DNA of 64,000 nt from Cyanidioschyzon merolae. Taxonomy: Eukaryota. The stretch lies in assembly GCA_000091205.1 (NCBI GenBank), contig AP006491.2, one strand, 5' to 3'. The position numbers and the translations under genes are program-made. Positions within the stretch are counted from its first letter, which is position 1. Each line of letters opens with the position of its first letter. This document shows positions 1-34,435 of the stretch, piece by piece. A model generated the notes under the pieces. That model was not told the origin of the DNA. It saw nothing but the letters and a program-made list of their open reading frames with translations, and ran no database searches.

Positions 1-1544
1 TATTTCTTCAAATGGACGCACTGCGGAAGCGTCTGATATAAATCGCGAAAAACCAGTAGACGACATGTAGTAGGGGTGGAACCCAAACGAGGTAAGAGAC
101 TATAAAATGCGACACTGAACTGCTCGCTCTTTGGCTGCCTTGCGATTTTTCCGAGCTTTTCTTGAGATGCGGATCCAAAATTCCAATTGTAGCAATTAGG
201 ACCGAGGATATCGTGGGTATAATGGGCTTCTTTGTCGTCTTTTCAAAGTGACACCTTCGACTCTTTGCTTCTAAAATCCGTTATGCCACCGTCAGCAAGA
301 TGATTTACGATGCCTTCGAAAGCGAGTTCTTAAAATAACCGCGATCATTGTCCAATTCACACATACAAGCCTCCATTCTCTTCTCCTTTCTTTACGTCTA
401 GTATGCGCACATCGCGCATTCTGCAAGGTTAAAATCTTTCCGTTTCGAGACTGCTCGTAGGATTTGCAATTTGCGCTGCTGGGTGGACGAGAAGAAAACT
501 CGACGCAGTACCCTGAAGACTTTTTTGCAAGCTCCTGCCGTAAGTTCAAGGAACTGTTCACTTCAAACAATAGGTTCCGTTCGAATCGCCAATTTTCTTC
601 TGTTTGCGGCCACCGACCATACGATTCTCGACAACAGCATGATGGCTTAAACGAGATAAGCTCCCAGAGGCCCCGTCGATTTTGCTTGCATGGAAAAGGG
701 TCTTTGACACGAATTCCAGCCTTCGCAGCGATCGCTTTCGGTAGAAATTGCATCCGTGCTTTGCATGGAGTGTAAATGGATCGAGATTCCTCGAGTCGTT
801 CTCCAATCTACATCCCCCTCCGATGTGTGATTCAAGGCGAACAACATTGCGTTCAACAAATCTATCATCGGATAGAGAGGCATGTCCATGCGCGAGCAGC
901 AGGCCAAGAACTCGCCGGCTGTATAATCCCGAAGCAGCCCATGAGCGCAGAGTACGCCACGGGGCGCGCAAACGGAGGAAAGCATTGGTAAGATCCTTCT
1001 ATATCCGTCAAGGGCATTTCCTGACCGATAATGCAAATGCTCCCGCGCCGCAGGGCAGCCCGTGGTGCAGATGTGATGGGAAAATGGAAAAACCTGGTTA
1101 CAGCCGAGTGTCACCTCTGCGAAAGGCACACCGGAGCTGTACAAAAAGCAAATGAAAAAGGCGAACGAAGCGTGGATCGCAAATTGGAACTGTGAAAGGA
1201 TTGCGTTGATAGCAGCGGGAAGAGGCGAAATTGGGTCTATAACGCTGGTATGATCCCCTTTAGCTTACGGCCATGGAGCTGGTAGGACGTGAATGATCAG
1301 CGTAACTGAGGCCGGAGATTAGACAGATGAGAAGAAATCAGCTGTAGAAAACGCACTCTAAGGCTGGTGTTGGTGAACGTGGGAAGAAATCCAAAATTTG
1401 AGAGTAAACGTCCGTGTTATTTGAGTGGACCTGTTCAATTTTACTCTATGCTGGGTGTGTCTCTGATCTAAACAAGGGAGTGGCGCTTCCCCTGTTCCAA
1501 AGTCGAATAGTTGAACAATTGCTAACGGCTCGCTTGCTCTCACT

Positions 1545-2738: not shown

Positions 2739-5700
2739 AACGTTCCGCTCTCTGGGTCTGTGGAAAGCACCAGCGTGCAGGTGACCGTGCTCCAGTGATC
2801 AGACGCCACTGGGGATCAAAATGTTTCACCAGTCATGAACCAAGTTGGCGCATGCGACTTTCTCAGATGACAGAACGTTTAGATTGACCATAGCTCCCAG
2901 AATTCGGAATGGATAATAGCTTTCGGGAGAGGGTCCATGATGAAGCGCCTATCTTAGAGTTCCATTACCCATACTTGCTCTCGGATATACTGGTCGTTTC
3001 GTATGCTCGATCGTGCGACAAGTGCCTGCCGTGAACACCCGCCGTGGCGCTTATACCACTGAAGCAGATGCTGCACGGAGACAGAACGGCTTTGCCATAC
3101 CACTGAGGGCGCCCGCTCGAAGAATGATTCATTCAACATAGGGTCGGAATACATAATAATAATCCTGGGAGCCTGTAAGCTGCGCAGACAGATGCGCTGC
3201 CTGCGACAGCGCGAAGCGATACACTAAGAGTCCACTGCGACCAGGGTGACGCCCAGACGCAGCATCCTGCTCCTAGTCCCAAAGTGAATTCCGTTGCGGA
3301 CGAGCTGCGCAGGTCTCGCCACAGCACCTGCCACTGGTGGAAGCGTGAAGCACTAGGCCTGCAGACTCGTCCGGCTCGCGGGACCTTCTGCCTAGAGGGT
3401 AAACTTTCGAAGATACTGAAACTTTTCCCCATTTCGACGCTTATTATCAATGTCGAAAGAAACTGTTATCGAGTTGCTAGTCAGTGGTTAGTTTCTGTTA
3501 TTTCTTCCCTAGGAGAGTACTTGCTGCTCACGGGACGGGCACAACTGGAGGGCCCACCAGTCCGAGGACTGGCCTTTGCTGCCGCTATCTCTATTCAAAG
3601 CCCTGCCGAGTGCTCTCTCATTTTCTCTCTCTACAACCTCCTGTCCGCGCCCTTGGCCAAACCTGTGAAAAGATATCGCTCGCGTCACTCGTGTTCATAT
3701 GTAGGGTACATTGGCGCATGCGATACCCAATGAAATCGGCGTCGTCATCTAACGGATTGGTTGCTAGACTTTGCGCGGCTGTTGGAGAAGTTATTGTATG
3801 GCCTGGCACCAAAGCATATCAGAGTTTGCGCGAACTTCCCGGTTTGGCTTGACAGGGGTGCCAGCTGTGGAAAATCCATCTGATGAACCATACGCCTTCC
3901 GATACTTCGTGCTACAGTTCAGAATTCGGTGTTCAGTTCGCGATGACGAGTGGCTAGGCGTTTGGGGCTCGCTTCCTCTGCTGCACGATTGTTTCAACGC
4001 ACCACTTCCGATGAAAAAACTACGTCGCTCAAGGGGCCAGATCGAGTGGGCTTTGCGTGTGCGTTTTCCAAAGCATCTTTATGACGGTTGCGAGTTTACG
4101 TATATATACTGCCTGTTACGGAAAGTTTCTGCGGATAGCCAGTATGAATCTTCCTACGAAGTCGTTGGCTGCGAGCCCTGTCCGTTACGCAAAAGTATTC
4201 TGAGCAGCGAAATCTTGCCATACGGTTTCTACGAACATGACGATCGCTGGGGTCATAATGACGGGAAGGTATATCCAAGGCAGGATCGCCTGGGTGTACT
4301 TGTATACAAGCATCTTTCGCGAGACGCCGCTCCATGCCGCATATCATAGGCAAGAGACAAAGTGACAGCTTGAACGCGCACGTCACACTTGTCTGCAGCA
4401 CTTTGACGTTTATGAGAAAGCGCTCAAGGTGTAGTCGAAAATTCCATCTCACGTGGCCCAAATGCACAGCGACACAGCACTTCATAGAGCGCGCTCCACC
4501 GGCAAACACGAACGGCGGCAGGCATCAATCGTGACCCTGTGCCCGAGCGGAATTTCCTCTGTTCTTACGACTTACAGTTGTTCCGCTCGGTGCAAATATT
4601 TCCTACTCAGCTTTAGTTGATAATGAGGCCGAGATCCCCAATATCTGGAATATTGGAATGAGAAGCATGAAGTCGTTTCGTGGTGGCGTCGATTAGCAGC
4701 AGTCTACCTAGAGAAATCGCCTATCCGCTCTTTTGCCCCCGGCTTCTTGTTGTATTTGGAGCTGTAATTTCTGGAATCATTGTACCAGAGCACCTTTTTG
4801 GTTTTGGTCTGTTTTCGTCGCAGTTATGGAACGAAAGCAATGTGTTCTGTAGATTCGAGAGAGGTCCCGGAAGTATGCTATACTGTCACTGTTAACTTGA
4901 GAAAGAATGGCCTTGGCCCTAGAGCTCACTTCTTCCACGGTAAGCAGGTTGATCAACCAAACATGTAGCAGTCCTTATTCTTAACGTCTCGCAATCTAGA
5001 CAGAATTTATGAATCTCCATTCACGCGAACGTCTTTTGATCAATTCATTCTGCACCATAAGCTCCGTGGGAAATTCTATCCAAGAATCCACGCGATTTTA
5101 AGCTTCCTTACCCCTGATACGAACGATAATGAAGAAACACGGATGGACAAGGAAAAAACACATTCTCGTGCGAGACCGTCGCATCTTGAACAACAGACTA
5201 CCGATTCCATACAGAAACGCGAAAGCTCATTACAGGAGTGAAGGGCGATCGCCTCACTCGATGCAGACTCATTAGGAAGAAATGGTAGACCTCTAGATGG
5301 ATAATTAAAGAGGGAGTAAACCATTTTTCATGAAGAAGAGACAAGCGAGAATGAGGACAATATTAGTCGTATCGGCAATTCGATCCTGTGGTCGCCTATA
5401 TGTCACTTAGATGACAGGGCCTGTCAACACCTTATCCATCATCGAAAGCGTCTGAAAGCTTTTCTTTTCAGTATTTCTCTTTAAAACTTGTCGAGAAAAC
5501 AGTTGCCATGACTCCAACGCGTTTAGAACATACGCAGCTGAGATTGGCGTGAAGCCGCTCCACGTGCCCACCTACTTTCACTGGTTCAGCCGAGTCGGGG
5601 GCGCACTCTCTGTGGTCAGACGCCATGATCACGCTCATGGATTCATGAAAGTGTCTTTTGTGTCCATTACACCGTTTTGTGACGAGCCTATTTTCTACAA

Positions 5701-5839: not shown

Positions 5840-7235
5840 TGTACACATAGAAAACGCAAGTCTCAGAGCCATCGTAAACCCAGTGCATCTGAATACCGAG
5901 GAAAAACTGATATGGAGTATAGCGATCACATCTATACCACTTTTCGAAGAAGGGGAGAAATAGAAGAGAACACCAGACAAAGAAGAAAGCTCCATCCTGT
6001 GGGAGGACGAGGAGAGACAGGAAATCATAACACGTCGAAGCGGAAACATCAGTCTGAAACTTTTGACAAAGCCTCCCAGCTAAAACTCATGAGCGGCGAG
6101 AACCTTTGGTAATGTGGGATGCAGAACTCCATTGGGGAACGCGCTGACTGTCACTCCATGTGGGGGCGCTTAGCTTCCCTCGCCCTGGTGCATCTCGCCA
6201 AACGACTGATCGCAACAGTTTCATTCGCAGGGATCCAAGCTGTCAACATTCCTCTGTAACTTCTCGATCAAGCATGCATCTGAAACCTGATGCTCGGGAT
6301 AGACGATGCAATACGACCTGACTTTTTCCATGGCTCTGTATTATCTGGAGTCGGGCGTGATGGACGCCAGGCGGCATGCCAGCGGGTGGAATAGCGGCGT
6401 CAGACCCGATGATAGCGCTCTGAGCACCTGAACGAGTTGAGCGGGATGCGTTGTGCGCGCCACTCACAGAGCGTACAAGAGCGTGTATCTGGCTCACGTG
6501 GGCTATCCCTGGCAGGTTTCCATGAGACCGCATTGAGATCGCCAACCAGCTCGGTGCGATGAAACCACGAGCGCGCACCAGCTCACTTCTTCAATGGAGA
6601 GCAGAGGGAGATGATCGACAATTCGCGTCGTTTGGCGGTAGCCTGTGGCGCTCGACGCGCAGTGCTGCGCACAGGCTGTACTCCCGTGCCTTCGACGGCG
6701 GCGTGCAACGAGTGCACGAGTCGATTCTGCACTATTGCTGTCAATGCGAACAGGGCGATGGACGCGCATCACAGGCAGGGGTGCACGCTGGAGCTGGTAG
6801 AGAGGAACAGCGTAGAAGCGTGTCGGATGCACGGGCTGGTCAACGGCAAACTGACCGGGCGTCAGTTGACGAGGCCATCGAAGATAGGAGACTTGCTATG
6901 CCGCGGCTCGATCCGCAACAAGTGCACATGCACTTGCTGCACCCAGACCTGAGCGCCTCGATCAACTTACGGAAATGCCGGGAGCGTTCGGAGCGTCCCG
7001 CGGCATTGTGTCGAGCGAACTCTTGAGGGAATCCTTTAGTGCTCAGTGGAGGTATTGTGCTGGGAAGCTGATGCGTTGCGATGAATACGAATCGGTGGTC
7101 AGGTGGGCGGACATTGGATATCCGCCCTGGGCGAGTCGCTGGTGTAGCACGGGTCAGCGAACCGGAAAGGCTGGAGCATTACACAGATGTATATAATGGG
7201 AACCTTTTCTCCTGGGTGATTGGTGGACCACAATG
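5840..7235 (+). repeat. Family-A repeat, partial copy A1. 6321-7235 is nearly identical to the outer-end 0.9 kb of A2/A3; 5840-6320 is a more diverged (about 75%) continuation.
   Basis: ORFs 6559..7026 and 6975..7196 are near-identical to 39872..40339/40288..40509 and to 32245..32712/32075..32296. The segment around 5845-5950 (HRKRKSQSHRKPSASE) is a diverged homolog of 39220-39320. Confidence 0.85.
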
Positions 7236-9479: not shown

Positions 9480-9730
9480 GATTAAGAAAGGTTGCCGCTG
9501 CAGGGCGTTCAACTCGCTAACAAATTGAGAGAAGACAATATTGTACGCCACGGGAATACAAAGAGAAGTGCGCCAGTGTCCGCCCTAAACTAATAGCGCC
9601 TCAGCGGTACTTCCCCGTGCTGAAAAGAACTCAAAGAATTCAACAGTCGGACCTATAGCTAAGATTCAGCGGCGCGCACACGCCATCAGAGCCACCGTAC
9701 GCCGCGTGCACCCATGTTGCCATAACACGG

Positions 9731-12370
9731 GCTATGTTCCCGAACTCACGACTATACTCGAAAGTTCGTGCCACTCACCGTTACCGCAAACGACGGCCTT
9801 GGCGGGCTTTTACCGCTATCGCTTCCATTTCCCCTCTCGCCTCTGGCTTTGAATACGCCGGTTGCTCATGTCTCTCCAGCCCCATGGTCACCAGCCGAAG
9901 GATACTGATCGTAGCGTTGAAGTCTCTGTTTCGCGGCTTCTCGCTGTTGTAGACCCGTTTTATGCACTGGCGCGAGTCACGATCTGAGCTTCGTTTACCA
10001 TTTGCATCCTCTTTCTGCACGGCCTCGGGGTGCACTCCCCAGCCGTTACACTTGGACCTGGTCAGGTGTTCCCATGTGCATCCACCAGTCCTCCACCGCC
10101 TCTGAGCGCCACTGTGTGGCGCGTAAACGCTTGACCCATCCCTCGGTACATGCGCTTTACCGTTCCGGAAGGCTCCGCCCGATGCCGTCCTCCGTTTCCG
10201 CGCGCTGCGCCATGCCCAATGATCACAGGCCTCTCCCGGGTGATTTCCTCAGCGAGTACTCTGTTCGCTGCACATTTGTGTGCGCGCTGTCGGATTCGAG
10301 TACTCGGACCCCGCCTCCTTGCCCGCTCTTCGTTTTTCTGCCAATTCTTCGCACAAAAAGTGCCGATGAGCTTGACGCGAATCGAGACACCTTGCCAACT
10401 CGTGGGTGTCGAGCCCGCATGTACTGTTTATTAGCGACGATGCGGCCAAGACGTCTGAGACTCACGCCGGGCTCGCTCGCAGGCGGCAGGCCTATCTTCG
10501 CCTCGGCGCCCTCGTATTTGAGGAATATTCGACCAAGGTTTAGAAACTGGCTGCTGATACCGGTTGCTCCCAGAAGCAGCGTCCGGGGTCGTCGTCGACG
10601 TCTCGCTGACCGTGATGTCCACGACATTCAGCACCAAAGAGTCGAAGGAGTGCTCAGAAACGAGGACCCGGAATCTCCAACATACCTATGAGTTCGTAGA
10701 ACATTACTGATGCGCTTCGAATGCCGAAGCTGTACGTCTGAACAAAAGTTCAGAAGCAAATCGAACGACGGCCACAGAGAAAGCAGTTTAGTGTTCTCTT
10801 TATAAATCTGACATGGACTAATGGTCTATAAACTCAACTGTATTCCTGCCGCACTGTGTATGATCGAATGCTGTTTGCGGTCTAGGGCGGGGGCCAGAAA
10901 TCACGATGCCATGTACCCGATAGATCGTAGGCGAATCGCCTGTGCGATACATATTCTTTCCTGAACAGTGCATGGAGGACTGCGTTCCTCCTCCAGGTCG
11001 GTCGTACAACAGTACTCAGATGGTTGACGAACACTGACCGAAAGAAGTAGATGCACTCTGCGTCAAACATCGATATTCTCAGAGAATGCGCGCGATCAAC
11101 GGTAGAAAACGGCCCGCTGACCACCTTTTACGAAAGACAAATGCGAAAATAGTAGTCGCTACGCGCGTCCCTGTTCCTTAAAAGCGTGTTCGAGTGGTCC
11201 TGAATACACGGGGTACAGTCGCAAAAAGAAAGTCTCAGTTCGTGCACGGCCATTTCCCACCGAGGTCACAGCTACTTCAGCGTTCGTGGAACGCCACTAT
11301 CCGTATGGAGCACAGGGACCGGGACACGGACGTCGGTTTGCTTGTTCAGTCGATGAAACTTGCTTCGGACGAGGCGGCCGGAGCGTAAATGGGTATTCGC
11401 GGACAGTGCACCCGCTGGATGTACGATCGAGCTCGAAGAGAGCGAGGATGTCATCATCTGCTCCAGACGGAGTGGACTTTATTTGCGGCCTCAGATTCAC
11501 TAGTGGAGAAGGCTCATCGACCAACACCAGCCACTTGATCGAATCATGGAAGATTTCGCCCCGACGTCGGGCGACGTCCTTCTGCTGGACACCGTGGCAT
11601 TTCACCATCCCCCTTGCGTTCGGGCTTTTGCCGATCCTGTCGAGGTATAGTGCTGCTTTTCATTCCTCTGTGCTCTACTTGATTCAACCTCATCAAAAGA
11701 ATGTTTTCCATTGTGAAACGTATGATGTCGCTCCAGTGGGGTCATCGCTGAAGCTTCCGGCACACGTTGACACACGGGCGCATGGTGTCTTACTTTCGCG
11801 AGTCCTAGCTTTTGCGGGAAGGTCCTCACCTAAACGAATGAACAATCGCTATGATTTTGAAGAAACAGAGAATCCAAGGGAATGGTATGGATGTGGAAGT
11901 CGGGGATCCTGAGTTCCGTCATTGCTGGATTCGACGCAGCCAGAACGAAAAATGCCTCTTCTCGCCGACCATCGAGCGAAGAAGAGCAAGTGGCGAAGAA
12001 GGAGAAGAACGGAGATAGGCGAGGGACGGTGTTTGTCGAGTGGAACGATGACGAGACTGTAGCGGAACAGAGGGCACGAGTACTAAGAACCGTCGGTGTG
12101 ATGAGATCAGGGATCGGCAGTAAACGCATGGAGCTCGTAAGCCGAGACTTGAACGCTGCTACCAATATCAGACGATGCGTTGTGCTGGAGACGAGACCCG
12201 AGCAGCTGACACGATCCAACGCTATGCGGCAACTGCTGAGGCTCGAAGTGTACGTGAATCAACTGGAACCGATTGCAGGCGGCGGGTCAAAAAAGGCTGG
12301 GAGGCGTCCGCATGTGGGTATATATTTACCCTCAATGGCCGGGAAGCATGTCTCGTTTTACTGAATATAG
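9731..12370 (+). mobile_element. Family-B element copy B1 (about 2.6 kb): degenerate TnpB/Fanzor-like OMEGA transposon relic. Left terminus ATGTTCCCGAAC...; right end about 12355-12380.
   Basis: More than 99% identical to B2 (15935-18491, inverted) and B3 (23260-24808, inverted). All six-frame ORFs are duplicated between copies. Carries the RuvC-III motif DLNAATNI about 200 bp from the right end and a subterminal hairpin GGGTATATATTTACCC at 12316-12331. Confidence 0.8.
11286..12364 (+). pseudogene. frameshifted TnpB/Fanzor-like RuvC nuclease relic: RuvC-I-like GVDFICGL (about 11469), RuvC-II-like VFVEWND (about 12038), RuvC-III DLNAATNI (12146-12169); no zinc finger
   Basis: ORF 11882..12364 encodes ...SKRMELVSRDLNAATNIRRCVV, matching the TnpB/Fanzor C-terminal consensus D-x-NAA-x-NI-(L/R)RRG. 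An upstream ORF in a different frame has a GVDxxxGL RuvC-I-like motif about 190 aa before the RuvC-II-like E. Motif order and spacing fit the family, but the frame is broken and the CxxC...CxxC finger is missing. Confidence 0.6.
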
Positions 12371-12709
12371 TGTTGGACCGCAGGCCATACTATTACCCTC
12401 TGTGAAGACGAACATCCCACTTCTGGGTTTCACTCGAGCGGAGCGAATGCTTCCCGCTCGGGGCATGCATCGGCACGTACTCCATGCAGCGCGTTGCGCA
12501 GCCGTCGTAGCACTGGCGCGCAGCTCGTTGGATTGTGAACTGGACATCGGGGCGCTGCGCGCTGCGCGCCAGTGTCCAATCTCCGGTAGCATGATGATCG
12601 CTGGATGCGTCCAGGCCAGGCGAGCGTGCTCATCTCCGTACGTGCGCAGGCGTGTGTGTCTGGATGTGCGTACATACTTTTTGCTGGAACGCCGGTTATT
12701 AAAGGCCGC

Positions 12710-15016
12710 ATGTCTGCTGCAGGTTTCCCTAGAGTTTCGACGGCACTTTCCGCCGCGCTGAGGTCTAGGGGAGCACAACGCTGTGGAAGAGTATGGTGGG
12801 CGAGGGCGCCATCGCAGAGCTTGCGGGTTCTGCTTCGGAACTACACACCAAGTCTGGGTTCTTTCGGGCTACGGCGGCAGCTTTATCGTCTGGAGCGAGA
12901 AGCAGACTTGTACCCTGAAGATTGGAGAAAGCAGATGATACTCTTAGAACAGCTAAACCGAGAAGGATCTGTTCAAAGTGCCGAGAAAGTTATTCAACGC
13001 ATCGAATCCGGGAGGTATGCTCTCGGAGAAGAGGCAAAGTACGAGTACATCAAAGCCCTTGTACGAGTTGGAAAACTGGAGGAGCGGTCGAAAACTGGCG
13101 GTGGCCTCGAGTCCGTGTTGCGAAATATTCCAGGCTCTGGAAGTGTCCTTTCTCGAACTGGGAATAGTTCGGAAAGTGGTCGCCTTCCCAGAGGCGCTGC
13201 CGAGCCTCCGACTGCCGCGCGCTACACAGACAACTTTAACAGTCCTCTCCAAATGTATGCCGGTGAAGGCACGCACCCAACGAGCGCCGGTGCGACAGCT
13301 CCCTCCTCAGCGCGAGCGTTGATGGGAGGTGCCTCCGGCGGAGCGTCCGGCAGCACCGAGGAACCGCTTGTCGTCACCCTTGCTGAGCCTACCTTCAGGA
13401 CGCAACTGTGGAAAACGATCCGCACGCTTGGCACTGTATTTCTGCTAATGTCAGGAGTTGGTGCAGTTATGGAGGAGCGGGGCCTATCCCGAGGAATCAG
13501 TATGCAGCAAGAGGTGCTACCCGAAGAAGGCAACAAAAATCTGCGACGGTTCTCTGATGTGAAAGGCTGTGACGAGGCGAAGGATGAACTCATAGAGATA
13601 GTCGAGTATTTGAAGGCGCCACAGAAGTTTACGCGCCTCGGCGGAAAACTCCCCAAGGGCGTGCTTCTAGTCGGGCCACCTGGAACAGGCAAGACACTGT
13701 TGGCGAGAGCGATTGCGGGCGAGGCTGGCGTTCCGTTTTTCTACGCATCCGGCTCTGAATTTGAAGAAATGTTCGTAGGCGTCGGCGCTCGCCGCGTGCG
13801 GGAACTCTTTAACGCAGCTAAGAAGCGGGCTCCCTGTATCGTGTTCATTGACGAAATAGACGCAATAGGCGGCAAGCGGAACCCCAAAGATCAAATGTAT
13901 ATGAAAATGACCCTGAATCAGCTGCTTGTTGAGCTCGACGGATTTTCGTCCTCTGAGGGTATTATCGTGATCGGAGCTACGAACTTCCCGGAATCGCTCG
14001 ACAAGGCGTTGATTCGTCCGGGCAGATTCGATCGCCATGTTATCGTTCCGAACCCTGACGTTCGTGGACGAGAAGAGATCCTCACCCTTCACACCGAGAA
14101 GATTCCGCTTGCGGACGATGTGAATCTCGAAATACTTGCTCGGAGCACGCCTGGATTTTCTGGCGCAGATCTAGCGAATCTGGTGAACATGGCAGCTTTG
14201 AAGGCGGCCCGTGAAGGCGCTTCCCTCGTTACTATGGAGAACTTTGAGTTCGCCAAAGACAAGATAATCATGGGTGCCGAGAGACGCAGCGCAGTTATAT
14301 CAGAGGAAAACCGTCGTTTAACTGCTTACCACGAAAGCGGGCACGCGCTAGTCGCGCTCTTCACGGATGGCGCGCTGCCGGTGCATAAGGCAACCATTGT
14401 GCCGCGTGGCGTCGCTCTCGGCATGGTCGCGCAGCTCCCGGAAAAGGATATGACGTCTATGTCACGCAAACAGATGCTTGCTAAACTCGACGTGTGCATG
14501 GGCGGCAGAGCTGCTGAGGAACTGATTTTCGGACCTGAAAATGTCACGAATGGGGCGGAGTCTGATATAGAGCAGGCAACAGAGCTGGCAGAGGCAATGG
14601 TGACCCGCTTTGGTATGAGTCCCAAGCTGGGTAACATGGCTTACGACATTCAGAGGGAGGTATGTGGGGAGCTTCTGCACGTGGTGGAGAAGGAGGTCAA
14701 ACGATTTTTGGACGAAAGCTACCAGCGGGCAAAGCAAGTGCTGCTGACTCATGAAAAGGAACTCCATCGAGTGGCAGCGGCCCTACTGGAGAAAGAAACC
14801 TTGGGCCGGGAGGAGATCATTCGTATCGTGAGGGGCGATCCTCTCCGCGAGCAGTTGTCGGAGGAAACGACCGTGAAATCCGAAGAGGAGGCCGCCGACA
14901 CTGGCAGCCTGGCTGAAAACGTTGCAGCAAGAGCACGAGGCGCTGTCGCCGCAGCAGCGGCAAAAGCTGGCGTGCCTCGGCCTGGAAAAGTCCCGGCAAC
15001 AGCGAAAACGGCCTGA
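12710..15016 (+). CDS. ATP-dependent zinc metalloprotease FtsH, mitochondrial i-AAA YME1-like (768 aa from Met MSAAGF; ORF opens at 12605)
   Basis: N-terminal presequence-like stretch, a single TM ([15 protein letters not shown]), AAA Walker A GPPGTGKT, Walker [12 protein letters not shown] and SRH, zinc motif HESGHAL, and a YME1-type C-terminal helical domain. Confidence 0.92.
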
Positions 15017-15934
15017 GCATAGAGCTGAAGGTGCAAATGCGATTGCTTTGCACCTCATCAGCTGAGCAGAAGAGCAACCTGGATTCTGCGTCCGGCTTCG
15101 GTTTGTTTCCGGGAACCGTGTCCTGTACAGGTATGACGATGCTCAAAGGTACATGAACCCGAATCGCTATTTCGAATGTGTGCAAATGCAAGTCTCCTCT
15201 GGAAAATTTCGTTCTGGATATCTCAACAGGTCGCAATGACCGTTGATTCGACGTACACCTGTACGCCCAGAAGACAGGATGAAAAGGAATGGATCTAGAT
15301 CTATCCGGGTCCGAACTAAATGCACATAAAATCAAAAATCCCACGATGCTAGGTGCTGCATGTTTCAGCGCTGACGCATTCTCTCTATAGGTGATGATGC
15401 TCTTCGCGTCGGCGGGATTTGGTAAGCTTCTTAAGAGAGGTACGAGGCACCCAGTCACCACCAAAACCATACATGCGTCATCATTTTTGACGGAAAGTAG
15501 GAATTCGCTCCTCATCGGACACTACAAACGGGTTTTGAGTCGCCACCCGAGCAGTTCGTTCCACGCATGCAGTTCGCTTGCGGCATTTTGAGGTTGAAGC
15601 ACTCTTGGTCCAAGAAAAAGCGTTTCGATATCCTGTTCGCGGCTGAGGGACTTTACATTGTTACTGGAACGAATATGTCGGTTCACAAACCTGGATATAT
15701 TGTCGAAACACTTCAGTATAAACAATCCTCAGAAACGAGAAATTTCAGACGTCGTAGTGCAACGTTTTTACTGGCACTCGAGCATCGTCACAGAGCTTTT
15801 TTATTGCCTGCTTCGAGACCGGCCTTAGAGCCAATTTTGAAGTTTGCGGCATATACATATGTTAAGCAGAAAAAAAGATTCGCAATTGTGTGCGGTAAAA
15901 GAATATCCACTCGCAGAAGCTTATTATCCTTTTT

Positions 15935-17171
15935 TGACCCGCCGCCTGCAATCGGTTCCAGTTGATTCACGCACACTTCGAGCCTCAGCAGTTGCCACAT
16001 AGCGTTGGATCGTGTCAGCTGCTCGGGTCTCGTCTTCAGCACAACGCATCGTCTGATATTGGTAGCAGCGTTCAAGTCTCGGCTTACGAGCTCCATGCGT
16101 TTACTGCCGATCCCTGATCTCATCACACCGAGGGTTCTTAGTACTCGTGCCCTCTGTTCCGCTACAGTCTCGTCATCGTTCCACTCGACAAACACCGTCC
16201 CTCGCCTATCTCCTTCTTCTCCTTCTTCGCCACTTGCTCTTCTTCGCTCGATGGTCGGCGAGAGGAGGCATTTCTCGTTCTGGCTGCGTCGAATCCAGCA
16301 ATGACGGAACTCAGGATCCCCGACTTCCACATCCATACCATTCCCTTGGATTCTCTGTTTCTTCAAAATCATAGCGATTGTTCATTCGTTTAGGTGAGGA
16401 CCTTCCCGCAAAAGCTAGGACTCGCGAAAGTAAGACACCATGCGCCCGTGTGTCAACGTGTGCCGGAAGCTTCAGCGATGACCCCACTGGAGCGACATCA
16501 TACGTTTCACAATGGAAAACATTCTTTTGATGAGGTTGAATCAAGTAGAGCACAGAGGAATGAAAAGCAGCACTATACCTCGACAGGATCGGCAAAAGCC
16601 CGAACGCAAGGGGAATGGTGAAATGCCACGGTGTCCAGCAGAAGGACGTCGCCCGACGTCGGGGCGAAATCTTCCATGATTCGATCAAGTGGCTGCTGTT
16701 GGTCGATGAGCCTTCTCCACTAGTGAATCTGAGGCCGCAAATAAAGTCCACTCCGTCTGGAGCAGATGATGACATCCTCGCTCTCTTCGAGCTCGATCGT
16801 ACATCCAGCGGGTGCACTGTCCGCGAATACCCATTTACGCTCCGGCCGCCTCGTCCGAAGCAAGTTTCATCGACTGAACAAGCAAACCGACGTCCGTGTC
16901 CCGGTCCCTGTGCTCCATACGGATAGTGGCGTTCCACGAACGCTGAAGTAGCTGTGACCTCGGTGGGAAATGGCCGTGCACGAACTGAGACTTTCTTTTT
17001 GCGACTGTACCCCGTGTATTCAGGACCACTCGAACACGCTTTTAAGGAACAGGGACGCGCGTAGCGACTACTATTTTCGCATTTGTCTTTCGTAAAAGGT
17101 GTCAACGGGCCGTTTTCTACCGTTGATCGCGCGCATTCTCTGAGAATATCGATGTTTGACGCAGAGTGCAT
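15935..17171 (-). pseudogene. TnpB/Fanzor-like nuclease relic in B2 (RuvC-III DLNAATNI at 16078..16055)
   Basis: ORFs 16311..17171 and 15788..16372 reproduce the B1 relic with a few substitutions (TLGVMR, VVLKTRPEQ, AMWQLL, EVCVNQ). Confidence 0.6.
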
Positions 17172-18491
17172 CTACTTCTTTCGGCCAGTGTTCGTCAACC
17201 ATCTGAGTACTGTTGTACGACCGACCTGGAGGAGGAACGCAGTCCTCCATGCACTGTTCAGGAAAGAATATGTATCGCACAGGCGATTCGCCTACGATCT
17301 ATCGGGTACATGGCATCGTGATTTCTGGCCCCCGCCCTAGACCGCAAACAGCATTCGATCATACACAGTGCGGCAGGAATACAGTTGAGTTTATAGACCA
17401 TTAGTCCATGTCAGATTTATAAAGAGAACACTAAACTGCTTTCTCTGTGGCCGTCGTTCGATTTGCTTCTGAACTTTTGTTCAGACGTACAGCTTCGGCA
17501 TTCGAAGCGCATCAGTAATGTTCTACGAACTCATAGGTATGTTGGAGATTCCGGGTCCTCGTTTCTGAGCACTCCTTCGACTCTTTGGTGCTGAATGTCG
17601 TGGACATCACGGTCAGCGAGACGTCGACGACGACCCCGGACGCTGCTTCTGGGAGCAACCGGTATCAGCAGCCAGTTTCTAAACCTTGGTCGAATATTCC
17701 TCAAATACGAGGGCGCCGAGGCGAAGATAGGCCTGCCGCCTGCGAGCGAGCCCGGCGTGAGTCTCAGACGTCTTGGCCGCATCGTCGCTAATAAACAGTA
17801 CATGCGGGCTCGACACCCACGAGTTGGCAAGGTGTCTCGATTCGCGTCAAGCTCATCGGCACTTTTTGTGCGAAGAATTGGCAGAAAAACGAAGAGCGGG
17901 CAAGGAGGCGGGGTCCGAGTACTCGAATCCGACAGCGCGCACACAAATGTGCAGCGAACAGAGTACTCGCTGAGGAAATCACCCGGGAGAGGCCTGTGAT
18001 CATTGGGCATGGCGCAGCGCGCGGAAACGGAGGACGGCATCGGGCGGAGCCTTCCGGAACGGTAAAGCGCATGTACCGAGGGATGGGTCAAGCGTTTACG
18101 CGCCACACAGTGGCGCTCAGAGGCGGTGGAGGACTGGTGGATGCACATGGGAACACCTGACCAGGTCCAAGTGTAACGGCTGGGGAGTGCACCCCGAGGC
18201 CGTGCAGAAAGAGGATGCAAATGGTAAACGAAGCTCAGATCGTGACTCGCGCCAGTGCATAAAACGGGTCTACAACAGCGAGAAGCCGCGAAACAGAGAC
18301 TTCAACGCTACGATCAGTATCCTTCGGCTGGTGACCATGGGGCTGGAGAGACATGAGCAACCGGCGTATTCAAAGCCAGAGGCGAGAGGGGAAATGGAAG
18401 CGATAGCGGTAAAAGCCCGCCAAGGCCGTCGTTTGCGGTAACGGTGAGTGGCACGAACTTTCGAGTATAGTCGTGAGTTCGGGAACATAAT
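15935..18491 (-). mobile_element. Family-B element copy B2, inverted relative to B1. It lacks the last roughly 100 bp of the right end, including the subterminal hairpin.
   Basis: Collinear reverse-complement identity to B1 across 9731-12290. Similarity to B1/B3 starts at ...CTTTTTTGACCCGCC (15935). The left terminus ...CGGGAACAT at 18491 matches B1 9731. Confidence 0.85.
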
Positions 18492-19816
18492 CCTTTTTGT
18501 AGTTACCTGGGTCTAAAATCGAAGGCTTGAACGAGATGCCCTATGGATGCGCGGTAGCTGCTATCATCTTTGGAGGAGACGGCTTCCCTTTTCTAATCAT
18601 CACGACGTTACACAAGCTTGGGCCCATTTCTTTCGTCGAAAATGGGGCCTGGATCGTTCCAGCGATGGATCCGCGCAACGCGAAGGCACCAAAGACAGAA
18701 ATTAATGGTAAACTGCGAACGGGTATACTGGATTAATCTGCTGCCCGGGGGGTTCCGTGTAAATTACATAGCACGTACGCGTGGTGGGCCTCATGCTCAG
18801 TAACTTTCGCGAAACTTCTCTCGGGCGCGATGCGGTTTCCAATCAATACCCTCGAATCAGTATTGTTTCGAGTCGTGACGGATTGAAGCATCCCCTGCGC
18901 TTTTCCCCCGAGCGATCGCAAGCAATGATTCACGGAATTCCCTGGCAAGAGCTCCACGAGATGCTTTTTTGCTCTAGGAGCACATGGTGCCGGATTGAAT
19001 TACCTGAGACTTATCTTGGCATGGTAGCCCTACCCTCCAAGGTAGCTACTGTCAGCCAACTCAGATACTAAAAAGCGAGGCATCTCGTTCAGATATCTGC
19101 TCACGCGCGTCGAACCGGACTGTGGGGATTTCGTGAGCTTTCCTGGCGCGTTTACCTCAGCCATAGGCATTTGCTGTAGTCACTGGAACCGAGGGCACAC
19201 TCGAGGTCTCATGCAGAATATCGCTTGGCGCTGGTATATTACCAAATCATATGCAGAGAATTAATGATTTGAGCGTATTGCACAAAACCGCTGTTCAACG
19301 AAAGAGAGGAGATTCATTTCGTGTAAAGCGGGCGAACGGAGACTCTTAAAGCCGGAACGGGATCGACGACATCAGATTTGCACGCGCGCTTCGGGTCCGA
19401 AGCTGAACGTGCGCGACTCCCGACAAGAGGCCCCGTCCATTTTTTTACCTCTGGAAGATTTACACTGACTATGGATCTCCCGTGGCGCGATTTGTGTTTG
19501 CATCCGGAAAAACGATCATTTTTCCACACTATATCATCACGTCCTGTCGCCCGCCACCCACATTTTCCAGACAGAGACACCGTTCATATTGCTTCCTCAG
19601 TAGAGCACCAAACTGTTGTGAGTACCGAAATTAGCGCCTAAAATGCCAGGGTAGACGCCCCAACGAGACGGAACGGCTTTGCCTTACCCTCATGGGCATC
19701 GGCCTCAGAGGCCACGTCCATGAGCGGTCGCAATCGCCACTTATGTGGAGCGTAGCGCACGCTTGCTGCACGAATCCCGGACTTCTTACAAGTGTGGCGC
19801 ATGGAAAAGTTGGCAG

Positions 19817-22303: not shown

Positions 22304-23284
22304 ATGGAATCGTGGAGACGTTCTTGCAAGTCGTGGAGGGAGCGCTTTTCCGATGATCTGGTTTATGAAATAAATATTCATACCGACGAATACTTCGGAA
22401 AATTGAAAATTTTTCTCCAACAGGCACCGTCTGGGAGTTACGTCAAGAAAAAGTTTAGAAGCTGCGAAGCCTCTGGTGGAGCAACTGTAGTGAAAAACTT
22501 GAGCTGCGGAGCACCAGTAACGTCAGGAACTCTGGCGTCGCACGGTCCACATCCCAGCGATTTCCGAATCGTCGGTTATGCTCTTAACGAAAAGCGCCTG
22601 TGTCGAGATATTACACCTCCAGAAGAACCGAATCGTTTGTGCGACAGCGCTGCCACTGGCTGGACCGCCTGGGATGCTAGCCTAGTACTAGCGAAGTGGT
22701 TGGAAAGGCGGCCTTACCTCGTGTGTAACAAGTTATGTCTTGAGCTCGGAGCTGGTATCGGCTTAGTATCCTCAGTAGCCTACTGCCTCGGGGCAAAGCT
22801 AACTGTATCCACAGACCGGGACGATGTGATATTCCTCCTGAAAAGCAACTTAAACCGTACAGTGGAGGCCTACATAGCGTATAATAATCAACTTAGGGTG
22901 AAACGAGCAGTTGACTCGAAGCTCGCGGCAGAAGTACTTCACTGGGAATCGAAGGAACATTTGGAGCGTGTACTGGCCGTGTATGGCGCTCCTGAAGTCA
23001 TTTTATGTTCAGATCTGGTTTACGAAGAGTTAGCTTCCCGCGCGCTTGTGCACGTACTTGTCCGAATATCGCGAGCAAGCTTGCAAATGGGGAGAAAACC
23101 TTTGATCATAATGGCGCAGGACGAGCACGTCCCTGAAGTTCTCGAACAATTCTTGGCCGGCATAAGTGCGTTTTTCACTGTTGACCGTGTGCCATGCTTA
23201 GATTTTAATCCGAATTTTAGCAGTGAGTTGATTAGAGTTTACCTTTTCCGGCCAAAAGCTGAACACTTTTTATATAATCAGTAA
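22304..23284 (+). CDS. protein-lysine N-methyltransferase, METTL21/FAM86 (Methyltransf_16) family
   Basis: AATGWTAWDASLVLAKWL...LCLELGAGIGLVSSVAYCLGAKLTVSTDRDD...CSDLVYEE matches the SAM-binding core of class I METTL21-type methyltransferases. The last 7 codons plus the stop lie inside the terminal sequence of repeat B3. Confidence 0.75.
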   Translation: MESWRRSCKSWRERFSDDLVYEINIHTDEYFGKLKIFLQQAPSGSYVKKKFRSCEASGGATVVKNLSCGAPVTSGTLASHGPHPSDFRIVGYALNEKRLCRDITPPEEPNRLCDSAATGWTAWDASLVLAKWLERRPYLVCNKLCLELGAGIGLVSSVAYCLGAKLTVSTDRDDVIFLLKSNLNRTVEAYIAYNNQLRVKRAVDSKLAAEVLHWESKEHLERVLAVYGAPEVILCSDLVYEELASRALVHVLVRISRASLQMGRKPLIIMAQDEHVPEVLEQFLAGISAFFTVDRVPCLDFNPNFSSELIRVYLFRPKAEHFLYNQ

Positions 23285-24808
23285 CACGAGACATGCTTCC
23301 CGGCCATTGAGGGTAAATATATACCCACATGCGGACGCCTCCCAGCCTTTTTTGACCCGCCGCCTGCAATCGGTTCCAGTTGATTCACGCACACTTCGAG
23401 CCTCAGCAGTTGCCACATAGCGTTGGATCGTGTCAGCTGCTCGGGTCTCGTCTTCAGCACAACGCATCGTCTGATATTGGTAGCAGCGTTCAAGTCTCGG
23501 CTTACGAGCTCCATGCGTTTACTGCCGATCCCTGATCTCATCACACCGAGGGTTCTTAGTACTCGTGCCCTCTGTTCCGCTACAGTCTCGTCATCGTTCC
23601 ACTCGACAAACACCGTCCCTCGCCTATCTCCTTCTTCTCCTTCTTCGCCACTTGCTCTTCTTCGCTCGATGGTCGGCGAGAGGAGGCATTTTTCGTTCTG
23701 GCTGCGTCGAATCCAGCAATGACGGAACTCAGGATCCCCGACTTCCACATCCATACCATTCCCTTGGATTCTCTGTTTCTTCAAAATCATAGCGATTGTT
23801 CATTCGTTTAGGTGAGGACCTTCCCGCAAAAGCTAGGACTCGCGAAAGTAAGACACCATGCGCCCGTGTGTCAACGTGTGCCGGAAGCTTCAGCGATGAC
23901 CCCACTGGAGCGACATCATACGTTTCACAATGGAAAACATTCTTTTGATGAGGTTGAATCAAGTAGAGCACAGAGGAATGAAAAGCAGCACTATACCTCG
24001 ACAGGATCGGCAAAAGCCCGAACGCAAGGGGAATGGTGAAATGCCACGGTGTCCAGCAGAAGGACGTCGCCCGACGTCGGGGCGAAATCTTCCATGATTC
24101 GATCAAGTGGCTGCTGTTGGTCGATGAGCCTTCTCCACTAGTGAATCTGAGGCCGCAAATAAAGTCCACTCCGTCTGGAGCAGATGATGACATCCTCGCT
24201 CTCTTCGAGCTCGATCGTACATCCAGCGGGTGCACTGTCCGCGAATACCCATTTACGCTCCGGCCGCCTCGTCCGAAGCAAGTTTCATCGACTGAACAAG
24301 CAAACCGACGTCCGTGTCCCGGTCCCTGTGCTCCATACGGATAGTGGCGTTCCACGAACGCTGAAGTAGCTGTGACCTCGGTGGGAAATGGCCGTGCACG
24401 AACTGAGACTTTCTTTTTGCGACTGTACCCCGTGTATTCAGGACCACTCGAACACGCTTTTAAGGAACAGGGACGCGCGTAGCGACTACTATTTTCGCAT
24501 TTGTCTTTCGTAAAAGGTGGTCAGCGGGCCGTTTTCTACCGTTGATCGCGCGCATTCTCTGAGAATATCGATGTTTGACGCAGAGTGCATCTACTTCTTT
24601 CGGTCAGTGTTCGTCAACCATCTGAGTACTGTTGTACGACCGACCTGGAGGAGGAACGCAGTCCTCCATGCACTGTTCAGGAAAGAATATGTATCGCACA
24701 GGCGATTCGCCTACGATCTATCGGGTACATGGCATCGTGATTTCTGGCCCCCGCCCTAGACCGCAAACAGCATTCGATCATACACAGTGCGGCAGGAATA
24801 CAGTTGAG
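23260..24808 (-). mobile_element. Family-B element copy B3: right-end 1.5 kb, same orientation as B2, truncated at 24808
   Basis: Identical ORF set to B2 (23278..23790, 23729..24355, 24033..24344 and others). Has the full right end including the hairpin GGGTAAATATATACCC (23311-23326, reverse-complement). Similarity to B2 is lost after ...GRNTVE (about 24808). Confidence 0.85.
23278..24355 (-). pseudogene. TnpB/Fanzor-like nuclease relic in B3 (RuvC-III DLNAATNI at 23496..23473)
   Basis: Same relic ORFs as B2 and identical to B2 at the sites where B1 differs. Confidence 0.6.
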
Positions 24809-25238
24809 TTGAAAAACTCTAGTATCCGAGGTCGATTTCCTTCAAGTCAATGCGTTCCGGTTCGTCGTCTTATGCGCAAGTTGTGGAAGCTACGTGCTGT
24901 ATTCCGTGTTGCCGCATTTAGGTACGCATTCGCATCCAGAGCGCTCTTTGATGCGAACCGGTCCGCAATATGCAGCGCACATGGCAAGGACTCACACCGT
25001 CAAAGCACGCCGAGCTTCGCACATGAAACTTTTCGAAAGCTGGGAAAGATAATTTGCTCGTCGGTTACCGGACGGGCATCCAGAAGAGACGTATCGACCT
25101 TGTCGAGACATCAAAGGTTTTAGGTTTCTCGTTGCAGCGTCAAGTCGCGCGGACACAAATCCAAGTTTCTTAAGATGATCATCGAGCGGTCGAGGTGGTG
25201 CTCTGTGAGAATAAAGCACATCGCTCGCATCGGTGCTC

Positions 25239-32014: not shown

Positions 32015-34435
32015 TGTGGCACACATTCATATAGCAGCTCCATCGTTCACCAATTGCCCAGGAGAAGGTTCCCATTACATACATCTTTGTAGTGCTCCAG
32101 CCTTTCCGGTTCGCTGACCCGTGCTACACCAGCGACTCGCCCAGGGCGGATATCCAATGCCCGCCCACCTGACCACCGATTCGTATTCATCGCAACGCAT
32201 CAGCTTCCCAGCACAATACCTCCACTGAGCACTAGAGGATTCCCTCAAGAGTTCGCTCGACACAATGCCGCGGGACGCTCCGAACGCTCCCGGCATTTCC
32301 GTAAGTTGATCGAGGCGCTCAGGTCTGGGTGCAGCAAGTGCATGCGCACTTGTTGCGGATCGAGCCGCGGCATAGCAAGTCTCCTATCTTCGATGGCCTC
32401 GTCAACTGACGCCCGGTCAGTTTGCCGTTGACCAGCCCGTGCATCCGACACGCTTCTACGCTGTTCCTCTCTACCAGCTCCAGCGTGCACCCCTGCCTGT
32501 GATGCGCGTACATCGCCCTGTTCGCATTGACAGCAATAGTGCAGAATCGACTCGTGCACTCGTTGCACGCCGCCGTCGAAGGCACGGGAGTACAGCCTGT
32601 GCGCAGCACTGCGCGTCGAGCGCCACAGGCTACCGCCAAACGACGCGAATTGTCGATCATCTCCCTCTGCTCTCCATTGAAGAAGTGAGCTGGTGCGCGC
32701 TCGTGGTTTCATCGCACCGAGCTGGTTGGCGATCTCAATGCGGTCTCATGAAAACCTGCCAGGGATAGCCCACGTGAGCCAGATACACGCTCTTGTACGC
32801 TCTGTGAGTGGCGCGCACAACGCATCCCGCTCAACTCGTTCAGGTGCTCAGAGCGCCATCATCGGGTCTGACGCCGCTATTCCACCCGCTGGCATGCCGC
32901 CTGGCGTCCATCACGCCCGACTCCAGATAATACAGAGCCATGGAAAAACTTGAGCAGCCTCATGTGCTTTCCATTCACTTCGTAGCGTCTGAGCGCTTCA
33001 CCCAGAGGTACGGCGATGTCCTTGAGGTTGATAGACCGGAGATTCACACCCGCCACGACGCTTGTCTCCTTCTCTCGGTTGAACTGTCGCAAAGCACCCT
33101 CTTTGCTCGATTCAAGCCTCCGTTTCACAAAGTGTGGGCAAATGGATATTCAGTGTGATCTTGACCCTCGGATAATTTCCCCCGGGTGCCCTCCCGGGTC
33201 CTCTTGTCATACGGATTCTGCTGTTCTGTAACCAACGGAATTTTCTCCATCTCCTAATGTTGGCGCGGTGCTATAGACGTGGACCCTATATCGCATGCCC
33301 GCTTTTCTTCCTCGGGGTTCAGAGGCACTGGATGGCCGCCGGCACTGAGACTTGCGTTTTCTGTGTATGTATCTCCAAGTCTTCGAGCGCTCTTCCTCAC
33401 CTGCTCTGTCGCGGGCACGCTCACGCACCGTAGTGCACCTGTCCGCCCCCTTGGTTTCACACGCGATCGGAGAAGCGGGAGTGCGGTTCAGGCCTGGTGA
33501 AGCAAGAGAACGAGTCGTCGTAGGACGGTGCTGCGGATGCAAACGAAGCGTCTATGGATCCGTGAAAGTAGAGACGGCGTTTGACGAAACAGAAGTCGCC
33601 TTCGGCTGGGTGCAACCAAAGAGCCTAGGTTGGAACGAGGGACAGCTCAACGCCAATCTCAATTGCAGACGCCCTGACCGCGTTTGACCGATGGAAAAGC
33701 GGCACTGCCGAAGAGCAGTGCAGAAGAATTCGGTACTGGGAGCTCACGAACCGCTTCGATGAGGAAATGGACCATTGAACGATCCTGTCTGTTTGGTGAT
33801 TTGAGGGCGATCCCAACTGAATCCGGGGGCGAGGCGCATGTCGTCACCGTACGCGCCTGTGCCATATTTACGACCAGCGGTGATCCGCTGTTTGAGCACC
33901 CATATCGAGGTCGACCATTTCGCTCGGATGATACCTCATCGAGTGAAACGGAGACCGGCCCGTTCTGTACTAACCGTGCGCGTTACAGCATGAGATCGGT
34001 AGCGCGTTATTCAACGCACGACGGTCTCCCGAAGAAGAGCGCTTTTTGCTCTGTCCATCCGTGTCTCTTGGTGGCCATTGTATCGAGGGCACGGAAGCTA
34101 CACATCCTGTTGGTTCGTTAGGAACGTTTCCGAGAGCACGTATGGAGTGGATTGGATTGACTGGGAGACAATTTTGTGTACCGAGTTTGATCGTTTCCGT
34201 CGTGATGCCCAGAACGCAGAATAAGTAGTATGAGGAGTGCGGCTCATGTACCAGCTCACCGTAGAACAACTGACTTGAGCAAGTAAGGCCGTGTGTCGGA
34301 AGCTGGCAGTCACAGCATAAAGCATTTCCGCGATCTTTCTCCGATCCACGAGATACGTTCCTCTTGGTGAATACCTGCGCGAAGAGAACAAAAGAGGGTG
34401 TGCTTGTAAAGATATCCTAGAACGTACTGCTCTGC
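32015..34435 (-). repeat. Family-A repeat copy A2 (about 2.4 kb): inverted arm, outer end at about 32015-32040
   Basis: Reverse-complement near-identity to A3 (38150-40570). Every ORF 32075..34391 has a mirror ORF in 38087..40509. The boundary was determined by where the flanks diverge. Confidence 0.9.

Follow-up and report, generated by a model that had tools for sequence, protein, structure and literature searches.

Probable remnants of a DDE_3-type transposon carrying an internally deleted Fanzor1 gene on chromosome 9 of Cyanidioschyzon merolae

The stretch of DNA analysed here, a window of 64,000 nucleotides to which all coordinates below refer, is part of chromosome 9 of Cyanidioschyzon merolae 10D, and the genes next to its repeats are eukaryotic and intron-less, six of these flanking genes being exact matches to C. 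merolae 10D proteins (BAM80041-BAM80052). The RuvC-III signature D-x-NAA-x-NI (D.NAA.NI) of the TnpB/Fanzor nucleases is restricted in this window to three near-identical copies of one repeat, which we call Family B, located at 9710-12369 (+), 15894-18512 (-) and 23273-24817 (-). The core unit common to all three spans 10828-12369 (+) in copy 1 and holds two relic genes on one strand, a decayed DDE_3 transposase and then an internally deleted Fanzor1. Its extent is given by copy 3, which consists of the core unit only: 10824/10831-12369 pairs with 24817/24810-23273 at 99% identity with sharp junctions, and junction alignments place the right end of the repeat, common to copies 1 and 3, at 12365-12369 (+). 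Copy 2 is 98.7% identical to copy 1, with its transposase relic at 17270-16385, a longest open reading frame (ORF) of 286 residues within that region (16311-17171), and its deleted Fanzor ORF at 15788-16372; in copy 3 the transposase relic lies at 24689-23803 and the deleted Fanzor ORF (170 residues) at 23278-23790. The latter ORF adjoins the 3' end of a Methyltransf_16 gene, an arrangement that recurs in environmental strains (contigs L001-L006), and copies 2 and 3 are both found in related strains represented by environmental contigs.

The Fanzor1 remnant of copy 1 (11876-12364, +) joins the start-codon region and some 20-50 codons from the N-terminus directly to the final ~100 codons of the gene, the latter corresponding to residues ~635-729 of CMe-1, the C. 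merolae protein assigned to Fanzor1 by Bao & Jurka (2013), whose sequence we took, with the CMe-1A consensus DNA, from the supplementary files of that paper. The ORF at 11882-12364 (+) encodes ...SKRMELVSRDLNAATNIRRCVV, and contains the peptide quoted in the initial annotation, whose D-x-NAA-x-NI motif indeed derives from RuvC-III: NRDFNAAINI of CMe-1 is the aligned counterpart of SRDLNAATNI (12140-12169), and DLNAATNI (12146-12169, +), the sole surviving catalytic block, is homologous to the motif that holds D672. As first described, it sits some 200 bp short of the repeat's right end (~12366-12369). By tblastn, CMe-1 matches the three copies at E 6e-20, 2e-17 and 8e-20, with 40-51% identity over residues 615/640-729, and in copy 1 residues 640-729 are covered at 51% identity (E 6e-20). 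A hidden Markov model (HMM) built from CMe-1 and 43 metagenomic relatives, scanned against all six frames of the whole window, recognised on this strand of Family B only its positions 648-716 (12062-12265; E 1.8e-15), and nothing upstream of 12062 in copy 1. Homology at the other end of the gene is seen in the start region, where MDVEVGDPE (from 11887) corresponds to MEKEVEDPG of CMe-1, and in blastn comparison of copy 1 with the CMe-1A consensus, which pairs 11876-11911 with 895-930 and 12116-12315 with 2889-3088. About 1.8 kb is missing inside the gene. The RuvC-I Asp (D431 of CMe-1, in a G-x-DPG block), which is present in intact relatives, is deleted from the relic, where HMM matches on this strand start no earlier than position 648; the catalytic Glu (E603, in a DE(F/Y)xTS block) has been deleted as well. 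Because only the RuvC-III block is left, the remnant cannot make a nuclease. That the gene is dead had been proposed at the outset, and this holds; its cause, then given as a simple frame break with loss of a zinc finger, is instead the internal deletion. Two weaker matches were discarded: the extension of the tblastn alignment to residue 615 (CWIRRSQNEKC against CTLQRVEMEKC) is spurious, as DNA homology and the intermediate P0003 put these residues in the N-terminal region, and a minus-strand match to CMe-1 residues 116-157 at 11046-10903 (E 0.25) was dismissed because it falls inside the plus-strand helix-turn-helix (HTH) region of the transposase.

A diverged copy of the deleted Fanzor derivative, with 72% nucleotide identity, is found at 46624-47202 (+), where a CMe-1A-type 5' leader replaces the transposase and the stretch similar to Family B (~46714-47202) is partial. 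It matches the CMe-1A consensus at 786-969 and 2809-3088 by blastn, 828-969 and 2809-3088 being the matches that flank the deletion, and CMe-1 residues 646-728 by tblastn (E 1.4e-20), and its RuvC-III motif has decayed to DFSTAMNI (47005-47028); longer variants of its ORF (193 and 226 residues) were set aside as mere C-terminal read-through. The deletion junction is collinear across Family B copies 1 and 3, this diverged copy and a metagenomic locus (L007), and since it is shared by copies that are only 72% identical, the deletion derivative appears to predate their 28% divergence and to have spread as such. A block of ~47 nt in the retained 5' coding part (CCTCTTCTCGCCGACCATCGAGCGAAGAAGAGCAAGTGGCGAAGAA; window 11955-12005, alignment columns ~108-154) is nearly invariant among these ~72%-identical copies (the 46.8-kb copy and L007).

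The first part of the core unit, from 10952 to 11838 (+), is a decayed transposase of the IS630/Tc1-mariner type (DDE_3), broken by stops and frameshifts, which includes the ORF 11286-11912 and the peptide DGVDFICGL. The assignment was made through P0182, a protein of 294 residues retrieved by profile search, in which Pfam recognises HTH_Tnp_Tc3_2 (E 8.6e-4) and DDE_3 (E 2.7e-25, 89 bits), and whose residues 6-291 map by tblastn onto 10952-11838 in four collinear pieces (E 3e-27). P0182 also aligns to the 286-residue ORF of copy 2 (BLASTP, E 5e-13), with ...APDGVDFICGL... pairing with ...LAAVDTSGRV... in the transposase core. That ORF has 34 diverged short-ORF relatives in a representative library of 1.84 billion proteins, and the consensus of 33 diverged copies matches DDE_3 at E 2.4e-6, scoring 27.9 bits where the cut-off is 28.6, and has weak Tc3-type HTH hits N-terminal to that match. 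A profile of the transposase relics found no match among PDB sequences, and direct comparison with the mariner transposase of PUl-1 gave marginal, weak similarity. When read against the open transposase of the metagenomic locus L009 (VSLDETSF, LLDNVAFH and NPIE, spaced D..D34E), the catalytic triad of the relic is not intact: the first Asp is kept (SVDETCF), the second is replaced by Thr (FCWTPWHF) and the Glu by Gln (QPHQ). The transposase relic is dead, having stops, frameshifts and two of its three catalytic residues lost.

The order of the two genes in the core unit, transposase and then Fanzor1, is the same as in two metagenomic elements. In L009:1-3538 (JGI 3300008963) an open transposase ORF of 301 residues (53-958), missed by the gene caller, precedes an intact Fanzor1 of 702 residues, P0144 (1146-3254), and the pair is bracketed by 28-nt terminal inverted repeats (TIRs; 3-30 / 3429-3456) with TATAC...GTATA ends; to judge from its sequence, L009 is apparently an intact two-gene element, and full-length members of this kind bear out the expectation that intact relatives of the relic exist. 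In L010:1-1392 (Logan SRR30639611) a Fanzor1 gene starts 90 bp beyond the P0182 gene and in the same orientation; the contig end cuts it after 96 residues, which match the N-terminus of the Fanzor HMM at E 1e-20. L010 starts with nearly the left end of L009 (GTTATACT-TGT).

The same succession recurs in three other sets of relics in the window. The most complete, at 58372-59219 and then 60052-61674 (+), matches P0182 residues 1-281 (E 4e-20) and then a nearly full-length but heavily decayed Fanzor1, covering HMM positions ~124-696 in seven collinear pieces, with VAGFDSRS at RuvC-I, ILVDALGTA at the Glu block and HHRDVNASKQV at RuvC-III; its left flank (58255-58280, ATATACTCTGAGGAGTGAAT) resembles the left TIR of L009, and a TIR search around 58-61.9 kb gave no convincing right TIR. 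At 4868-5671 (+; P0182 residues 4-269, E 8e-17) a transposase relic is followed by a Fanzor relic of the type seen in a second repeat, Family A, at 6318-7038. The two arms of Family A itself, identified by tblastn and the family HMM, read 34093-33508 then 33113-32251 (-) and 38425-39076 then 39631-40351 (+); their Fanzor relics are frameshifted and match HMM positions 467-701 at 32953-32251 / 39631-40333 (E ~3e-24), with a mutated Glu block (TIAVNANRA) and a RuvC-III that reads HPDLSASINLRKC. Given four independent sets of relics in the window and the two intact metagenomic elements, we conclude that a DDE_3 transposon carried this Fanzor1 lineage. The CMe-1A consensus and L008, a locus with an intact Fanzor gene, are without transposase, which in the case of CMe-1A fits its description as non-autonomous by Bao & Jurka.

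That the CMe-1 lineage as a whole belongs to Fanzor1 was stated by Bao & Jurka (2013), and our comparisons agree. In hmmsearch the family HMM matches green-algal Fanzor1 proteins (VCa-1 at 1e-23, CVu-1 at 4e-9, CRe-1/4/5 at ~2e-6), and hhalign of the two families gives 99.4% probability (E 1e-21, 350 columns), pairing GADPG with GVDPG, VDEFRTS with IDEYKTS and NRDFNAAINI with NRDVSAANVI, that is, the RuvC-I, Glu and RuvC-III blocks. The catalytic residues of CMe-1 are D431 (GADPGN), E603 (VDEFRTS) and D672 (NRDFNAAINI); its canonical RuvC-II position reads VVAYGAG, and E603 represents the Glu in the rearranged position that Fanzors typically have, which agrees with the rearrangement described by Jiang et al. 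(2023). When P0144, an intact relative, was modelled with AlphaFold, the top six Foldseek matches in the PDB were all solved Fanzor1 structures (GtFz, SpuFz, PpFz; E 6e-8 to 1e-6), with nothing else below E 1e-3 and the next match at 0.16. A peculiarity of the lineage concerns the CxxC...CxxC zinc ribbon between the Glu block and RuvC-III, which Bao & Jurka considered strictly conserved in TnpB/Fanzor: it is absent from the relic and from every full-length member examined (CMe-1, P0105, P0144-P0147), where the site has 'THHELGC...C' or no Cys and is accompanied by a ~40-residue insertion before RuvC-III. As the ribbon is missing throughout the Cyanidiales Fanzor1 lineage, intact members included, its loss did not kill the gene in the window.

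Standard annotation does not reveal the Fanzor homology. Searches of Pfam, NCBIfam and PDB sequences with the relic ORFs returned nothing relevant, Pfam labels part of the lineage's proteins only as DUF8286 (PF26935), and a search of 5.8 billion proteins with the 170-residue ORF found just three close relatives, from hot-spring-type metagenomes. The profile search suggested as a check gave a divided answer, in that generic profiles had no match, even with the intact protein, while the lineage-specific HMM and the comparison with CMe-1 were significant; treating the lack of a significant profile hit as grounds for rejection, as proposed in the initial annotation, would have wrongly discarded the finding, because the generic profiles miss the intact protein too. 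Since generic libraries miss the lineage, reading at the level of motifs was more sensitive than standard annotation, yet it also produced two false motif assignments, those of RuvC-I and RuvC-II.

Several known systems are close enough to merit comparison. The nearest is CMe-1/CMe-1A, the one Fanzor1 family (CMe) reported in C. merolae by Bao & Jurka (2013; Mobile DNA 4:12) in the paper that defined Fanzors: CMe-1A has ~150 copies, each ~80% identical to a 3,169-bp consensus that encodes a 734-residue protein; TIRs were not found, target-site duplications escaped determination, and the authors left the element unclassified. Before that, Nozaki et al. (2007) had described CMe-1/CMe-1A as a 'novel interspersed repetitive element', counting 253 copies of ~3.2 kb that make up ~5% of the genome, and had noted that its truncated ORF weakly resembles protein WSV486 of white spot syndrome virus, a virus in which Bao & Jurka in turn listed a Fanzor1. 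Family B shares with CMe-1/CMe-1A the organism, the protein lineage (51-53% identity over ~90 residues at the C-terminus, among them NRDFNAAINIRRC...RP..LTR...GGRSKK.GRR.HV), the position of the gene at the right end of the element, the lack of detectable TIRs and the old, decayed state of the copies. It differs in that the 200-280 nt it retains are just 69-72% identical in nucleotides to the CMe-1A consensus, in contrast to ~80% for typical members, in the ~1.8-kb Fanzor deletion, in its last ~80 nt, and in a 5' part made of a DDE_3 transposase relic and not of the 635-bp TE-N2_CMe module, TE-N2_CMe being a separate ~70-copy element (Bao & Jurka 2013). On these grounds Family B is a sister sub-lineage of CMe-1A and not a member of it.

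In its gene content Family B recalls the Tc1/mariner elements PUl-1, PUl-2 and SPu-1 (Bao & Jurka 2013), in which a DDE transposase is likewise followed by Fanzor1 on one strand within ~3.5 kb, and Fanzor-transposase associations are described more generally by Jiang et al. (2023). L009 has the ~28-nt TIRs, TA-containing ends and D..D34E triad of this type, whereas the window copies are dead and without detectable TIRs or TA duplication, their Fanzor1 lineage has no zinc ribbon, and their transposase, which matches Pfam DDE_3, is just weakly similar to that of PUl-1. No structures but those of the solved Fanzor1 proteins SpuFz1, GtFz1 and PpFz (PDB 8GKH, 9CEU, 9CER, 9CF1) match the fold of P0144 significantly, and they also rank first; the intact Cyanidiales relatives have in common with them the Asp of RuvC-I, the Asp of RuvC-III and, within DE(F/Y)xTS, the rearranged Glu. 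Sequence identity is 13-15%, the Cyanidiales lineage is without the zinc ribbon, and the window relic keeps the RuvC-III segment only. Prokaryotic TnpB (IS200/IS605, IS607) shares D-x-NAA-x-NI near the C-terminus and a gene at the right end of its mobile element. Beyond that motif, however, the relic has no match to the Pfam domains OrfB_IS605, TNB or Cas12f1-like_TNB, the RuvC-II Glu is rearranged in the lineage, which also has a long N-terminal domain of eukaryotic type, and the carrier is a DDE transposon and not an insertion sequence of the Y1 or serine-recombinase kind.

Taken together, we consider it very probable that the region is the dead, non-autonomous remnant of a Tc1/mariner/IS630 (DDE_3) transposon in which a Fanzor1 gene came after the transposase gene, and that it belongs to the C. 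merolae Fanzor1 lineage already catalogued. In a living element of this kind the transposase would, by analogy with its family, cut and paste the element, and Fanzor1 with an RNA from the element's 3' end would be expected to cut DNA, as is established for other Fanzor1 proteins. In the window both genes have decayed, the transposase through stops, frameshifts and the loss of two catalytic residues and Fanzor1 through the loss of ~1.8 kb, whereby its first ~20-50 codons came to run into its last ~100; the resulting derivative would have spread as such, presumably mobilised in trans. A number of observations weigh against this reading. The consensus match to DDE_3 is 0.7 bits under the curated Pfam cut-off, and membership in that family leans on P0182 as a bridge; generic profiles applied to full-length CMe-1 and its relatives give no significant TnpB/Fanzor match, PF07282 remaining below threshold at E 0.52 (CMe-1) and 0.23 (P0105) over 11 residues of the NAAxNI tail; and the P0144 model is poor (mean predicted local distance difference test score, pLDDT, of 60; TM-scores 0.23-0.31), for which reason we treat the fold evidence as supportive only. 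In addition, inspection of the Family B ends in the window (10828/12369 and 9733/12369) detected neither TIRs nor a clear TA duplication, so that the boundaries 10828/12369 are taken only from the junctions of copy 3 and comparison with L009 and L010, and the three near-identical copies may reflect gene conversion, recent duplication or mobilisation in trans.

Other explanations were weighed against that of a dead transposon remnant. The initial annotation saw a complete but frameshifted TnpB/Fanzor gene across 11286-12370 with RuvC-I, RuvC-II and RuvC-III in the right order and spacing, and it is true that look-alikes of the first two blocks, DGVDFICGL (11466-11492) and VFVEWND (12029-12049), lie upstream of the true RuvC-III. 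When aligned to CMe-1, however, only RuvC-III finds its counterpart. Compared with the Fanzor family HMM, DGVDFICGL in its context obtains -4.8 bits, even when the database size is set to 1; the start-codon homolog of the relic (11887) comes 395 bp further downstream, and the peptide aligns within the DDE_3 transposase. VFVEWND falls in an insertion opposite CMe-1 residues ~632-640 in the tblastn alignment, downstream of the real Glu E603 in VDEFRTS, and Fanzors are in any case without the TnpB-style hhhE(D/N)L RuvC-II block (Jiang et al. 2023). As these two assignments are spurious, the order and spacing of the motifs are coincidental, and with no Fanzor HMM match upstream of 12062 on this strand we regard a three-motif gene as refuted by the HMM, the CMe-1 alignment and the transposase homology, leaving it practically no credence. 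Hardly any more room is left for a chance motif, a fragment of an ordinary host gene, or bacterial TnpB brought in by contamination or transfer. The silence of Pfam, NCBIfam and PDB sequences on the relic and the three close relatives among 5.8 billion proteins could be taken to favour such an origin. Against it, the motif, for which a chance expectation of 0.002 had been claimed, is expected still less often, 0.0007 times per window, from six-frame composition; the homology extends over ~90-115 residues of a published eukaryotic Fanzor1 (E ~1e-20, with the family HMM at ~2e-15); and the relic lies on a finished eukaryotic chromosome with eukaryotic genes on either side and belongs to a 253-copy repeat family. 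The extended homology, the chromosomal setting and the repeat family refute this reading, and what had been described as a repeat with a dead nuclease relic of the TnpB superfamily at its right end is indeed that.

A more subtle alternative is that the relic is not inert, being either a satellite that supplies a guide RNA (omega-RNA or f-RNA) in trans to an intact Fanzor1, or a domesticated protein of 160-194 residues. The deletion derivative persists in 72%-identical copies and in another Cyanidiales genome, three copies are held at ~99% identity, and the ORFs are open through the tail and are called as genes in metagenomes; moreover, the guide RNAs of Fanzors overlap the 3' end of the ORF (Jiang et al. 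2023), and the repeat family has been reported as transcribed (Nozaki et al. 2007). The 3' 276 nt of the relic, on the other hand, fold no better than shuffled sequences (z = +1.13), the 3' end of the intact element itself being just mildly stable (z = -1.59); an Rfam scan gave no family match and a tRNA scan was empty. The N-terminal frame of the ORF differs between copy 1 and copies 2 and 3, read-through makes ORF lengths vary, RuvC-III decays in relatives (DFSTAMNI in the diverged copy, RGFNAAINI in P0003), and the terminal ~80 nt at the 3' end are unlike CMe-1A. We therefore hold a functional relic to be quite improbable. The broader proposal, that the Fanzor1 proteins of Cyanidiales, organisms of hot, acidic springs, form an unstudied zinc-ribbon-less lineage on a DD34E DDE_3 transposon whose deletion derivatives act as guide-RNA satellites exploiting an intact nuclease in trans, is a long shot in our opinion.

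Regarding the history of the three copies, copies 1 and 2 share a left segment (9733-10827 in copy 1, -) that copy 3 does not have, and this segment contains, on the minus strand, the relic of an older Fanzor1 tail (~9781-10295), with NRDFNATISI at 9901-9930 and two collinear matches, each of them weak, to CMe-1 residues 614-685 (tblastn, 10083-9883) and to HMM positions 547-606 (10295-10110). A 31-nt inverted match between 9901-9931 and 12139-12169 corresponds to the two opposed RuvC-III coding motifs. The joint presence of two unrelated relics in both makes segmental duplication the most likely origin of copies 1 and 2. Copy 2 follows copy 1 at ~99% identity to ~12297 and then falls to ~60-68% over the final ~70 nt, and so abrupt a drop suggests the boundary of a gene-conversion tract. 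On account of the shared older neighbour and this sharp fall in identity near one end of copy 2, the presence of three ~99% copies within 15 kb probably reflects local duplication and/or gene conversion and not fresh transposition. In L007:328-1041 (JGI 3300025503), from a more distant Cyanidiales genome, a homolog of window 9841-9971 lies ~180 bp beyond a deleted Fanzor tail, forming the pair of relics known from Family B, here arranged tail to tail.

With regard to novelty, the Family B element is not a new family, as had been supposed, since C. merolae was among the species in which Fanzor1 was first defined (Bao & Jurka 2013) and the repeat had been reported by Nozaki et al. (2007); the value of the locus as a discovery is small, the Fanzor1 of this organism being a founding example of the family in 2013. 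Our findings are a modest addition in two respects: a DDE_3 carrier (Tc1/mariner/IS630-type) is proposed for a lineage left unclassified in 2013 with no TIRs and no transposase, and the whole lineage, from thermo-acidophiles, is without a zinc ribbon said to be strictly conserved. That generic profile libraries do not recognise the Cyanidiales Fanzor1 lineage, and that lineage-specific comparison alone reveals the homology, may also matter for annotation. The repeat itself was reportedly noted in the genome papers of 2004 and 2007.

As to the surroundings, a gene for an FtsH/YME1-type AAA protease (12605-15016) is bracketed by the inverted, 98.7%-identical Family B copies 1 and 2 (9710-12369 and 15894-18512), with the Fanzor tails directed towards the gene. 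Family A is arranged likewise, as an inverted, 99%-identical pair (32024-34437, -, and 38146-40560, +) flanking 3.7 kb of unique sequence, and has a partial third copy at 6323-7209 (+). Inverted pairs of this kind could promote inversion of the gene that they enclose. At 2866-3507 (+) the 5' module of CMe-1A, which corresponds to TE-N2_CMe, is present in a copy 83% identical to consensus 2-640, and a fragment similar to CMe-1A consensus 786-892 is found at the very start of the window (1-104, -). Weak similarity to parts of Family B or to the Fanzor tail (E 0.4-6) at 51604-51687 (+), 41398-41557 and 50539-50590 may represent very old fragments or chance. The segment 54001-58000 is GC-rich (0.63-0.67 vs. 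~0.53 elsewhere) and contains overlapping long ORFs on both strands (55702-57846).

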